NCBI GenBank assembly: GCA_964016885.1
Contig: OZ024740.1
Coordinates: 332,134,001-332,198,000 of the forward strand
Direction of reading: 5' to 3'
Length of the DNA: 64,000 bases
DNA from: Eledone cirrhosa
Taxonomy: Eukaryota
Below, in pieces: positions 39,661 through 50,560 of the stretch. Numbering within the stretch: position 1 is the stretch's first letter; every line of letters starts with the position of its first letter. A program made the position numbers and the translations under genes. The notes under the pieces are model-generated. The model made no database searches, was not told the DNA's origin, and saw nothing but the letters and a program-made list of their open reading frames with translations.

Positions 39661-39831
39661 ATAACAAAGGAAGTGTGGTAAGGAAACAGATGGACCATAA
39701 CGCACCAGAGTACTCAATACTTAGCGTAGTAGAGTGGGTAACAGGAAAATGTTTAACCCCGACGGCAGAGCTCAAACCGTTTCGACAGCTATATATATAT
39801 ATATATGTTTTTTTCTTCTCTCTCTCTCTCT

Positions 39832-39865
<34 letters not shown>

Positions 39866-40053
39866 CAAAGGAATTGTGGTAAGGAACCAGATGGACCATA
39901 ACGCACCAGAGTACTCGATACTTAGGGTAGTAGAGTGGAAATAGGAAAAAGTATGACCCCGACGGCAGATCTCAAGCCGTTTCGACGGCTATTTCTGAGT
40001 CCAGAAATAGCCGTCGAAACGGCTTGAGCTCTGCTGTCGGGGTCATACTTTTT

Positions 40054-40057
<4 letters not shown>
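39661..40057. mobile_element. Two truncated terminal-repeat copies, the second folded back on itself
   Basis: 39661-39790 and 39863-39996 are direct copies; 39941-40057 is an almost perfect palindrome. Confidence 0.85.
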
Positions 40058-40115
<58 letters not shown>

Positions 40116-41089: not shown

Positions 41090-41340
41090 TTGTAGGCCCC
41101 TGACCATTTCAGCAAAGCTACCAATGAATAGCTTAACTGAACCTTAAAAATCAGGAGTACTCCCCCCCCCCCACCAGTGTGGGCCTGTGTCTAGAATTTT
41201 GTTCTGCCTTTGTTACTCTAAACATAGTTTTTTAAAGAATTCCACTTTCTTTAATCAACCAATGACCTCCACCCATCCTAATCACCACCCTCTCCCACTA
41301 CCAGAAGAGGTATAAATACCACCATATTACATGGACAGTC

Positions 41341-41391
41341 GGCTTCCTGATGATTTCTCCCGAATGAAACAGGTCTAGTCATGTAGAAGCC
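41341..41391 (+). ncRNA. Type I hammerhead ribozyme in a roughly 315 bp element (41089-41405)
   Basis: Stem I GGCTTC/GAAGCC; CTGATGA; stem II TTC/GAA; GAAACA...TGT A^. Confidence 0.85.
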
Positions 41392-41419
41392 ATTTCTATA
41401 TTGAATATATATATATATA

Positions 41420-41545
41420 GTGAAGGCGTGTGGCTGAGTGGTTAGGGAATTGGATTCGCAATCGTAAGGTTGTGAGTTCGATTCCTAGACCAGGCGATGC
41501 GTTATGTCCTTGAGCAAGACACTTTATTTCACGTTGCTCCTTCTA
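41420..41545 (+). mobile_element. Second tRNA-derived SINE family (head and core)
   Basis: A box tggctgagtggt, B box gagttcgattcc, then tgtccttgagcaagacacttt (CORE/V-type core). Confidence 0.75.
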
Positions 41546-41679
41546 CCTGGAGTTGCGACCGATAGATAGTATTAGCAATTGGAAAGACCAACGGAAACAT
41601 TGTTCCCTCGGTCCGATTTGACAAAAAAGTCGATCGTTTTTTTCATATATATTTATATATATATATATAGAGAGAGAGA

Positions 41680-42153
41680 GACGGTTGTCCCCTTGCTTCT
41701 GCTGGACACCATCAGAGGGCGTTAGTCCCGGTGTTTGCAGGGCTACGGCTTCCTAAAACCGTGTTCCTTTAGAAATACGAAATGTATATACATATTTCTA
41801 TAACTCTATGCTTGAAGCGAAATCCTATTTCTATTCTATTATAAGTTGAGCCAACTTATGCGGCTTCATATGCAAACGAGATTAATCACCTCATTTACAC
41901 AGACGAGAAAACTATATATTCTCGACTGTTTTCAAGTCCAGCAATTGCAAGCGGTGGAAGGGACAGTCCTGAAGAAGGTCAGTCAAGCCTGAAATGCATA
42001 GACGATTGTCCCTCTTGCTTTTGCTGGACACGTGAATAGGGCGTTAGTCCCGGTGTTTGCATAGATACGGCTTCCTAAAACCGTGTTTCTTTAGAAATAC
42101 GAAGTTTCTATACATATCTGTATAACGCTATGCTTGAAGCGAAACCCTATTTC

Positions 42154-42158
<5 letters not shown>
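41680..42158 (+). mobile_element. Retrozyme-like element: 1.5 copies of a 321 nt unit with one hammerhead
   Basis: 41680-41835 is repeated at 42001-42158; hammerhead at 41966-42003; microsatellite on both sides; no ORF. Confidence 0.8.
41966..42003 (+). ncRNA. Minimal type I hammerhead ribozyme
   Basis: GTC CTGAAGA AGG..CCT GAAATGCAT A^GAC; palindromic stem III ATGCAT. Confidence 0.8.
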
Positions 42159-43203
<1,045 letters not shown>

Positions 43204-45661: not shown

Positions 45662-45821
45662 GTGTGCATACAGACACATATGTAAATATACATATGTACG
45701 TATGGGTTATATCGAACATTAATAATAATGTTCGATTCGTTTGTAAACAACGGCCCGATTTGAAGCTGTGCCGTACCCGTGACCGATTATCGCCTGTTTG
45801 TTCAACACAGGCTTTGAGGAA

Positions 45822-45862
45822 CAATCAACATGTTTCTGGGACATTACCCTTCATCAGGACTG
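45822..45862 (-). ncRNA. Minimal type I hammerhead in a fold-back element (about 45585-46105)
   Basis: CAGTC CTGATGA a GGG..CCC a GAAACATGT T^GATTG. The inverted partial copy at about 45992-46105 retains GAAACATGTT. Confidence 0.8.
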
Positions 45863-46105
45863 TATACATCTGCCAGTCTGTTAACCGGTTGAATATTTAT
45901 CGTATCTCCTTAAGTACATATCTGCTGAGTAGCCTCATTTGCATACCGACCGAGTTACGGCTGGCCTTGCCGAATATTAAAAATAACATTAGAATGGTAA
46001 TGACCCTGAAACATGTTAATTGTTCCTCAAAGCCAGTGTTGAACAAACAGGTGTCAATCGGTCACCCGCACGACACAGATTTAACTCGGCCGTTTGTTTA
46101 CAAAC

Positions 46106-46319: not shown

Positions 46320-46895
46320 ATACTTTGGGAGGGTCATGTTGCCAATAATAAACACACGCACCAGTAACTTTCACTTCAATTTATTATAATACATTTATAA
46401 ATTTAGGAATTTATAAATTTCCGGTTGGTTGGTTGGTTGGTTCCACAACCAGATAGTTGTTTATATATTGTCAAAGTTCTTTCGTCACACATTATGTGAC
46501 CTCTTCAGTGACCGGCTGTTCTTTTCTTTGTTTTTGTGCCTCTCTTTTGTTCTGTCCTACGCCATTTTGTTTCTGTGTGTGTTGTGTGCTCAGTCTGCGC
46601 ATGCGCCACATCCGGGTGTCTGTGTGTGTTAATATTCGTTTATTTATTTGTTTATTTACATGTTACGGGTTGGTTGTTTGTTCTATGTGCGTGTGTTTTC
46701 ATTTTGTCCTGAATTGTAAGTTGTGATGTTGCTGTACACTCATATTTTCTATTTAATTTTGGTTGTAATTCTTTTATGTTTATTGCCTCTGTTATTTGTC
46801 TAAACATTGCGTCTTTTCTGTGTGTAGATTCTATTTTTATTTCTATGTTCTCTAATTTACCCTTATGTTCTATTTTAGCATGTTGGTAGAGTACA
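46315..46895 (-). mobile_element. Non-coding Penelope-type terminal repeat with a hammerhead at 46470-46512
   Basis: Homologous to 47519-48085; GTCA CTGAAGA G GTCAC..GTGAC GAAAGAACT T^TGAC; (TA)n flanks. Confidence 0.8.
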
Positions 46896-47160
46896 GATGA
46901 TATATATATATATATATTTATGTATATATATACATATATACTACATGTATATATATACTACTGTGCGTCTGTACACATATATGTATGTACGTATACATAC
47001 TTACATTTAAGTATCAGCCGTACTAAGAGTGAGAAATGAAATTTCGTTTCATTCTTTTCGCCCGGCCGACTAACTCACTCGATATGCAAATTAGGCTGCT
47101 CAGCCGTTAATATGCATAAGTATAACTTTCAAACGTTCAATCATCTGACAGGAAGGTATA

Positions 47161-47201
47161 CGATGCTGACGAAAGCTAATAAGCTTGAAACTAGTACATC
47201 G
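47161..47201 (+). ncRNA. Intact minimal type I hammerhead in a roughly 408 nt unit element (about 46955-47415)
   Basis: CGATG CTGACGA AAGCT aata AGCTT GAAACTAGT A^CATCG; stems I and II pair fully and stem III is the palindrome ACTAGT. Confidence 0.9.
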
Positions 47202-47416
47202 TTCTTGTGTCAGTGTTGAACAAAAGGGCGACGATGGTTGCCGAACACTGTACGGCGTAATTCGGGCTGTTTGTTTACAAACAAACCAATCATTATAATA
47301 AATGTTCGGCAAACCCATACGTACATATATATATGTGTGCATGTATGTATATATATATATACATACTACTGTGCGTCTGTATACATATATGTATGTACGT
47401 ATACATACTTACATAT

Positions 47417-47518: not shown

Positions 47519-48376
47519 ATTGTTATACTTTGGGAGGGTCATGTTGCCAATAAGAAACACACGCACCAGTTGCTTTCACTTCAATTTAATTTATTAAATA
47601 TTTATAAATTTACAAATTTATAAATTTCTGGTTGGTTGGTTGGTTCCACAACCAGATAGTTGTTTATATATATATAGTCATAGTTCTTTCGTCACACACT
47701 CTGTGACCTCTTCAGTGACTGGGGATTTCTTTCTTCGTTTCTGTGCCTTTCCTTTCTTCTATCCTACACCATTTTGTTTGTGTGTGGGTTGCGTGCTCAG
47801 TTTGCGCATGCGCCACATCCGGGTGTCTGTGTGTGTGTTTGTGTTCATTTTTCTATTTTTCTATTTATATTTTTTTATATTTTTTTATATTTTTATTTTT
47901 TTTTATTTTTTTTTATTTGTTTGTTTATTTATTTATTTATTGTTGGTTGGTTGTTTGTTCTATGTGTGTGTGTGTTTTCATTTTGTGTGTGTTTTCAATT
48001 GTAAGTTGTTTGTTCGATGTGTGTGTGTGTTTTCATTTTGTCCTTAATTGTAAGTTGTGATGTTGCTGTTCCACTCATATTTTCTATGCGCATGCGCAAA
48101 CTGAGCACGCAACCCACACACAAACAAAATGGCGTAGGATAGAAGAAAGGAAAGGCACAGAAACGAAGAAAGAAATCCCCAGTCACTGAAGAGGTCACAG
48201 AGTGTGTGACGAAAGAACTATGACTATATATATATAAACAACTATCTGGTTGTGGAACCAACCAACCAACCAGAAATTTATAAATTTGTAAATTTATAAA
48301 TATTTAATAAATTAAATTGAAGTGAAAGCAACTGGTGCGTGTGTTTCTTATTGGCAACATGACCCTCCCAAAGTAT

Positions 48377-48516: not shown

Positions 48517-48900
48517 CAGAGGTTATATTTAATTTGTTGGGATTCAACAAGCTTAAACATTTTTATAACTGATATAAAGCACTCAACAGCTTAGTGGAGT
48601 AAATATACAATATATTAACGAATTTTGAAACTATATTTATAAAAGCATATTTATTTTATTATACATATTTCAAGGGCCACCAAGGCAAATTATGGTCCGC
48701 CTTCATCAGAATTGACATACCCTGAAAGAAGACAACCTTAACGTTTGGAGCTTCCTGGATTTATTTATTTATAAAACAAATCTGTATTGTATTTTATCTG
48801 ATGAAAGCGCACCATAATTTGGCTTGGTGGCCCTTGAAATTTGTATAATAAAATATATATGGTTTTATAAATATAGTTTCCATTTGTTAAAATATTGTAT
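48515..48900. mobile_element. Fold-back element with hammerhead-like motifs in both arms
   Basis: About 48607-48710 is inverted at about 48797-48900; CTGATGA..GAAAT; same family as 50106-50560. Confidence 0.8.
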
Positions 48901-49204
48901 ATATATATATAAATGAAAGGTATAGAAAATATTATAGCAAAAAGCCAACAGTATTCCATAATATATAAGTGTCTATAGCGTCAAAATGGGAAAAATAGTT
49001 AACGTAAGATGTGGGAAAAATAATTCAAACTCAACTCAAAAAGAATCAGGATATAGATTCATCCTACAGAATTTAGTGAAATCCAGGGAAAAATCAATTG
49101 CGCCTTAACTCATGATAAAATAAAGTTTGAAATACTCATCCTTCAATTTGGAAAAACTTCAAATGCTCTGTATAGTTTTGAAGACTATATCACGAAAACT
49201 TTCA

Positions 49205-49272
<68 letters not shown>

Positions 49273-49334
49273 TTATATAATATTCAAATATAAATATTAA
49301 TAAAATAGATGTTCTTTTGATCAATTACATTTTA

Positions 49335-49380
49335 TTATACATATTTCGGATGTGCAATAGTACGTCCTCATCAGACAAAA
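49335..49380 (-). ncRNA. Hammerhead-like motif, same family as the 48.8 kb and 50.4 kb motifs
   Basis: attttgt CTGATGA GGACGTAC tatt GCACATCC GAAATATGTA; stem I register unclear. Confidence 0.65.
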
Positions 49381-50041
49381 TATAATGATACATGACATAC
49401 CCTGAGATGTTAAATGGTTAAGATTTAATCTATTTTCTTAATATTTATATTTTAATATTAATAACTCCGGAAAATTATTTTTTCGTAGAGTGCTTCCAAT
49501 CTACTGTAAAACTCATTCTTTGACATACTCATTGAATATTGTTTAACACTTTAATATATATTTATATATATATATTTCAATTACAACACAAAATAATTAT
49601 TTCACTACCGAATGCTTCGAGAAAATAGATATATATAGTTATATATAGTTATATATGTGTCAGTGTAAGTGCGCATGTATGTATTTGCATATATATGTAC
49701 GAATGTGTAAGTGCGTGGGTATGTGCTTATATATGTATGTGTTTATATATATACATATACATTTATTATTTTCCCCTTTACATATACTTCCGTTATTTTA
49801 TTTCAGCCTCGCTTTCAATTGTTCTCGACTTTGTTTTGAAATCCATATCTCACATTCATTTAAAATAAATTTTCATTCTGACGACCAAAGTCAGACGTCT
49901 GTGTCAGGCTCGTCTGTCTTCGTGAAACCTTTGGTAAATGAAATAATTATCTTATGTTGTTTATTTCTAACTAAAAAGCTCTGTAGTCTACATAGAGCAC
50001 TCTCTTTTCCTTTACCTTTCCTACGGAAACACTTCATATAT

Positions 50042-50105
<64 letters not shown>

Positions 50106-50106
<1 letters not shown>

Positions 50107-50560
50107 GATATTAAACAAATGGAAACTATATTTATAAAACCATATTTATTTCGTTATATATATTTCTGGGATATCATATTAAAAATATGTTATGCCTTCC
50201 TCAGACTCCTATTGTATTTACAATACATAAGCTGTTATATAAATAATTAGTGACATACCTTTTGAGAATGCAACTTCCTTTTAAAAAAGTTGATTTTTTA
50301 AAAGGAAGTTGCATTCTCAAAAGGTATGTCACTAATTATTTATAAAACAGCTTATGTATTGTATTTTGTCTGAGGAAGGCATAACATATTTTTAATATGA
50401 TATCCCAGAAATATATATAACGAAATAAATATGGTTTTATAAATATAGTTTCCATTTGTTTAATATCGTAAACCTACTCCAGAAACTGTCGAGTGCTTTT
50501 ATATCAGTTATAAAATATTTACTCGTTGTAACCCAACAATCTTAAATAAAACTTTTGCAT
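50106..50560. mobile_element. Near-perfect palindromic element (arms about 180 bp, centre about 50291) with hammerhead-like motifs
   Basis: 50106-50288 versus 50295-50470; CTGAGGA..GAAATATATA at 50370-50417; (TA)n flanks. Confidence 0.88.

Follow-up and report, generated by a model that had tools for sequence, protein, structure and literature searches.

A hammerhead retrozyme family of Eledone cirrhosa with a U6-like promoter module and Penelope-like insertion ends

Penelope-like elements (PLEs) are described with copies in inverted orientation, a tail that sits on one of the ends, and a bias towards (TA)n (Craig et al. 2021, 10.1101/2021.04.23.441226). In Frangieh et al. 2024 (PMC11167929), the PLE reverse transcriptase (RT) uses two internal start sites, both downstream of the hammerhead ribozyme, the tail is the stretch between these sites, and both strands are extended; insertion in vitro did not need cleavage by the hammerhead, and for PAc the initiation sites were alike on both strands in vitro. 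Circles have been proposed for retrozymes by Cervera and de la Pena (PMC7229834), and a PLE origin of retrozymes is argued from homology and co-occurrence in a 2026 preprint (10.64898/2026.07.22.740005).

The locus presented here lies in a window of 64,000 nucleotides (the whole stretch of DNA that was analysed; 332134001-332198000 of contig C1) in the microsatellite-rich, 3.0-Gb genome of Eledone cirrhosa. We read it as a 5'-truncated copy of 1.5 units, produced by U6-type transcription, self-cutting, circularisation and insertion into (TA)n by a Penelope-like RT/GIY-YIG protein priming at two sites. Each of these steps is likely, and the reading as a whole has a probability of roughly 0.6.

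Structure of the locus and its hammerhead

The main structural elements of the locus are as follows.

41645..41679, no strand: left flank (TA)n(GA)5, the likely target tract, ending a very high-copy SINE-like repeat
41680..42000, plus strand: full unit of the retrozyme family, 321 nt; its 5' end is an ordinary truncation coinciding with the cut
41869..41880 (unit +190-201), plus strand: U6-like upstream promoter motif, TATGCAAATGAG in the family, with one substitution in the window copy
41913..41920 (unit +234-241), plus strand: TATA box; transcription start predicted near 41943 (unit +264, by U6 geometry), just before the hammerhead
41960..42012, plus strand: predicted type I hammerhead; stem I of 5+4 bp with a 3-nt bulge, stem II of 4 bp, palindromic stem III of 2 bp
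42001..42158, plus strand: incomplete second unit with 87% identity, which stops at 3'-end site B of the family, the downstream, tail-bearing one
42103..42119 (unit +102 to +118), plus strand: 3'-end site A, putative RT initiation site, unused in the window copy
42145..42160 (unit +144 to +160), plus strand: 3'-end site B, putative RT initiation site, used in the window copy
42159..42186, no strand: right flank (TA)14, shared with a second hammerhead family's inverted arm

The sequence GACGGTTGTCCC begins at 41680 and GACGATTGTCCC at 42001, directly after GAAATGCATA, which confirms the description in an earlier note of a 321-nt cut-to-cut unit joined through the hammerhead to 158 nt of a second unit; the alignment of the second unit extends to about 42158-42165. 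The earlier reading of the element as a non-coding hammerhead retrozyme was right. The longest ATG-started frame is 44 aa, in line with the absence of coding capacity claimed before, and the unit has the size and composition of a retrozyme (321 nt within about 150-450 bp, non-coding, GC under 50%). The insertion sits in the (TA)n end of a tRNA-like, very high-copy SINE-like repeat (41420-41640).

The insertion had been said to start exactly at the cut. The coincidence at this locus is real, but the left boundary is looser than "exactly" implies, and the caveat that it is uncertain by a few nucleotides was justified: the left edge reads (TA)n(GA)5 GACGG, against CATA^GACGG at an uncut junction. 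If the GA run was expanded by slippage after insertion, as seems plausible, ATA microhomology may have placed the start of the copy 2-3 nt upstream of the cut.

The hammerhead core comprises CUGAAGA at 41969-75 and GAAA at 41991-94, with a cut predicted after 42000 (AUA^). The fold has a z of -2.8, and Rfam at gathering score gave no match for the locus. Among 119 copies the full core is intact in 74, with N7 as the sole strongly variable column; tests of the intact core failed, in proportion, for 26 of 74. In an alignment of 49 copies (the window copy and 48 of 72 extracted ones, picked for equal length) 91% of stem cells are paired, against 35-52% in slid controls. Between subfamilies, compensatory changes occur at three pairs, one in stem I and two in stem II, where 9, 6 and 10 sequences are altered on both sides; these are largely one subfamily split, and hence few independent events. 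Judging from the variable N7 and the compensatory pairs, the hammerhead is under selection. The window locus holds a single complete hammerhead and consequently could not itself release the 321-nt monomer. Tandem copies with two complete hammerheads, characteristic of non-LTR retrozymes, make up 12 of 237 arms in the family, the window locus being outside this group.

Ends of the insertions across the family

A DNA search for the unit gave 2,374 candidates, 40 of which were scored, and exact patterns gave 169, 789 and 1,247 matches with none in the controls (the latter two patterns being 21/22-mers); the cut region is read through uninterrupted at 1,247 genomic places. The family comprises roughly 2,000 dispersed copies. 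The analysis covers 186 non-duplicate loci. The DNA search, with its bias towards full units, supplied 30 of them, and the others were taken from the first 100 matches listed for two patterns, on contigs C1-C4. Tests of 5' ends used pattern-sampled loci, with 237 arms of at least 60 nt in 165 loci. Copies diverge by about 5% from the column majorities, and with this divergence and the proportion of full cores given above the family may be mostly inactive. One subfamily, recognised in 13 loci from its diagnostic bases, carries an insertion of about 16 nt at +78; apparent 5' ends that pile up at +79 among loci of the second sample trace back to this subfamily insertion and were rejected as true ends.

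The 5' ends are scattered over the entire unit. The start at the cut had been taken as a retrozyme footprint, and a plot of the 5' ends of all copies relative to the cut had been suggested, with random ends named as the outcome that speaks against it. Random ends are what was found: of 237 ends, 6 are no more than 4 nt away from the cut, where 6.6 were expected (p = 0.65). The cut was passed 113 times and stopped at 6 times in the first set, and 91 times and once in the second; junction columns 316-3 contain no insertions in 204-236 copies. The start of the window copy at the cut is a coincidence, no more frequent across the family than chance gives.

These counts bear on the idea that an RT copies linear, self-cleaved monomers as far as the 5' end and jumps from one to the next, so that insertions begin at the cut. 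The window copy and loci L073, L055, L088 and L260 do begin at or near the cut, but given the chance-level frequency of such starts, more than 200 copies free of junction insertions and 3' ends located away from the cut, we regard this as highly improbable and refuted by the end map. The proposal that a monomer was either circularised or template-jumped before copying is affected unevenly: a circular template is plausible, whereas template jumping is disfavoured by the lack of stops and of insertions at the junction. A circular template would in any case not predict a 5' start at the cut. Reverse transcription over more than one unit, as previously suggested, is borne out by copies that cross a seamless junction. 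Mild excesses of 5' ends are seen at +258-278 (22 against 11.9) and +1-25 (28 against 18.2), in windows picked after looking and with 23 subfamily loci set aside; both coincide with the two arms of a long stem.

The informative fixed ends are the 3' ends, which the earlier note overlooked. They cluster at two internal sites, +102-118 (site A, about +110) and +144-160 (site B, mode +153), and the "tail" is the stretch of about 40 nt between them. Apparent piles at exactly +123 and +164 were partly due to TA-like letters in the reference, and the positions were refined with a single unit. A dinucleotide run adjoins 175 of the 237 3' ends, as expected for AT-rich or microsatellite targets. An inverted second arm is present at the 5' end in 77 of 193 insertions, with the 3' ends facing outward in all 77. 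Such pairs combine one A and one B end in 29 of 33 cases (p = 5e-6) and, in the second sample, in 15 of 18 (p = 0.003), a total of 44 of 51 that leaves aside 26 more pairs with an end elsewhere. In the neighbouring, unrelated 549-nt hammerhead family, 25 loci provided 16 pairs, and 11 of 11 counted have one end per site. A fold-back origin of the inverted arms was rejected, since either arm can extend further 5' (18 against 9 of 29).

The family also displays the 5' truncation and partial tandems that are hallmarks of PLEs. Because its 3' ends, inverted arms, one-ended tail and (TA)n bias match PLE descriptions, the element is likely a non-LTR retrozyme moved by a Penelope-like RT/endonuclease and behaving like PLE cargo. 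At many loci (for example L057, L061, L093 and L227) runs of (CT)n or (CA)n between the element end and (TA)n extend the last bases of the element, which suggests that element junctions seed compound microsatellites.

PLE GIY-YIG copies are abundant in the genome (10,595 candidates). In 105 GIY-YIG loci (30+20+55), which belong to several families and make up a small share of the PLE load, neither a 3' UTR nor a flank matched the unit; the element itself has no RT and GIY-YIG ORF, as an autonomous PLE would, and no link to such ORFs in these loci. The unit could instead be a terminal repeat (pLTR) belonging to an autonomous PLE, with copies bearing the ORF too rare to have been sampled. Every insertion hallmark is PLE-like, Xenopus retrozymes are described as matching pLTRs (10.64898/2026.07.22.740005), and the sample covers 186 loci out of about 2,000 and less than half of the PLE families. 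Against this, the 186 loci share no departure point into other sequence (flanks compared in the first locus set) and their arms circle the unit in every phase; the 105 GIY-YIG loci are without a match, and a Pol III-type promoter is ill-suited to an mRNA. We therefore consider a terminal repeat improbable and retain the reading as a retrozyme moved by PLE machinery.

The U6-like module, the RNA template and neighbouring repeats

In the U6 and U6atac genes of this genome the upstream motif lies at -76 to -78 and the TATA box at -30. Both were found in two single U6 genes, in 13 of 18 fetched copies of the U6 cluster on contig C19 and in the best U6atac match; the motif was absent from the four U2 copies viewed and from RNase P. 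The distance from motif to TATA is 43 nt in the unit and 46-48 nt in U6, and because this spacing is 3-5 nt shorter, we only infer a promoter function. An ungapped PSE comparison with the C19 cluster (13/21) was no better than shuffles, and the apparent likeness to the U6 promoter rests on the short motif and the TATA box. A T4 run at +250-253 would need read-through; U6 terminators in this genome are T7 or longer. The tandem U6 cluster (G000:C19:31780605-31840331) has a period of about 1.8 kb, and some U6 copies have a SINE-like insertion in place of the upstream motif; a tandem U2 cluster (G000:C3:307349256-307453739) has a period of about 2.2 kb and a TATA-like box near -31.

A gapped pattern of motif plus TATA gave 21,879 matches against 234 for the control, mostly in another hammerhead family, and the module is common to several hammerhead families. 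In three of six divergent matches the module is the sole part that matches the unit and is followed by a decayed hammerhead; the other three showed no match to the unit.

Several of these repeats surround the locus. At 42182-43083 lies the second hammerhead family, with 1.36 copies of the 549-nt unit, an inverted arm and a long stem III; it has 2,666 candidates, arrays to about 2 kb and 3'-end sites 88 nt apart, and lacks the U6-like motif. Two more hammerhead families with the U6-like motif and TATA are found at 47084-47400 (plus strand) and about 45700-45945 (minus strand), the former being the most abundant family (unit of about 470-500 nt, arrays up to about 7, internal (TA)n). A hammerhead-like fragment at 41310-41400, with a TATA box about 35 nt upstream and a (TA)n end, also occurs beside L077. 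A 201-nt tandem repeat at 39661-40065 and further CUGANGA..GAAA motifs at 46410-46520, 47700-48230 and 48700-50420, some in inverted pairs, are probably more PLE-type repeats.

In the preferred reading, transcription would begin near +264 of one unit and pass two hammerheads, and the self-cut, cut-to-cut monomer, with the promoter sequence now internal, would be ligated into a circle. A PLE protein would nick both strands of an AT tract, with site B as the starting point for extending one strand and site A for the other; cDNA synthesis would stop at random positions, and short microhomology would join the products to the target or to one another. A further round could start only from insertions that contain the promoter together with two hammerheads, as 3 of 237 arms do; the window copy could not seed one. 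If the promoter lies upstream of the start, a linear template would lose it every time it is copied, and yet 155 crossings of the predicted start region by arms were counted; this favours a circular template.

With the same element and PLE machinery, the template might instead be a linear multimer that is left uncleaved and comes from rare loci with tandem units, the hammerhead merely trimming or freeing transcripts. RNA that had not been processed was the main substrate in vitro (PMC11167929), a monomer with a 2-bp stem III cleaves poorly (PMC4209133), and in related families arrays reach about 7 units. Diagnostic bases are shared by units within one insertion in 79% of cases against 60% between loci, which fits both circular and linear models. 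Rare variants are shared more often between inverted arms (48 in 9,541 columns) than between tandem units (11 in 5,155), although these pairs are not independent and one locus contributes 8; this excess, unpredicted by a single circle, leans towards a linear multimer or later gene conversion. The excess of 5' ends at +258-278, a window picked post hoc, agrees with linear copying but also fits the long stem located there. An upstream promoter would cost about one unit per linear round, however, none of the 237 arms exceeds 2.3 units (733 nt), and upstream and downstream units show no consistent differences save one column, tentatively ascribed to alignment. On balance a linear multimer seems less likely, and we keep the circle as template.

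More tentatively, and with less than even odds, we suggest a superfamily of more than 20,000 hammerhead retrozymes with a captured U6-type external promoter, inheritable solely through RNA circles, in which a two-armed insertion results from one PLE dimer that primes each of the two target strands at a fixed RNA site of its own. If true, a single dimer priming from two sites would explain the Penelope tail and the inverted pLTR in one step.

Comparison with known systems

As far as the accessible text of PMC7229834 and Li et al. 2026 (10.64898/2026.07.22.740005) describes them, metazoan non-LTR retrozymes share with this family a non-coding, low-GC unit of 150-450 bp, a type I hammerhead, tandem and dispersed copies and the presence of PLEs in the genome. 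They form long arrays, whereas the insertions here are mostly dispersed, of 0.3-2.3 units, and known from DNA alone. The PLE tail at insertion ends and the U6-like promoter were found in neither source within those sections. The end map provides direct genomic evidence for PLE insertion of an animal retrozyme, for which the two papers, in the same sections, argue from co-occurrence and homology.

In the Schistosoma hammerhead SINE-like repeats and newt satellite 2 (as summarised in PMC6765202 and PMC2220036), too, a promoter precedes the hammerhead in the unit and more than one unit is needed to propagate. The Schistosoma repeats are described there as Pol III and the newt satellite as snRNA-type Pol II; the module here resembles the upstream region of the genome's own U6/U6atac and not that of U2. 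It gives the family a candidate promoter and, with it, a possible ground for requiring circles. The available main text of the octopus repeat paper does not mention hammerheads.

With EN+ Penelope-like elements, as described in the accessible sections of Craig et al. 2021 and PMC11167929, the family shares 5' truncation, partial tandems, an inverted 5'-truncated arm, a one-ended tail, (TA)n targets and two start sites downstream of the hammerhead. It differs in being a retrozyme without an ORF, with no autonomous partner found among the loci compared, and in that its start sites appear to be paired one per arm, whereas PAc in vitro is described without a strand difference (PMC11167929). With one arm per site as the rule, the in vitro system that already exists can be used to test how the PLE tail originates. 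In the literature, subscription papers and Repbase aside, a one-ended tail is described, and neither a U6-type promoter in retrozymes nor strict A/B pairing was found reported. The element class is thus already known; what is new is the U6-like promoter module and the pairing of ends, one arm per site.
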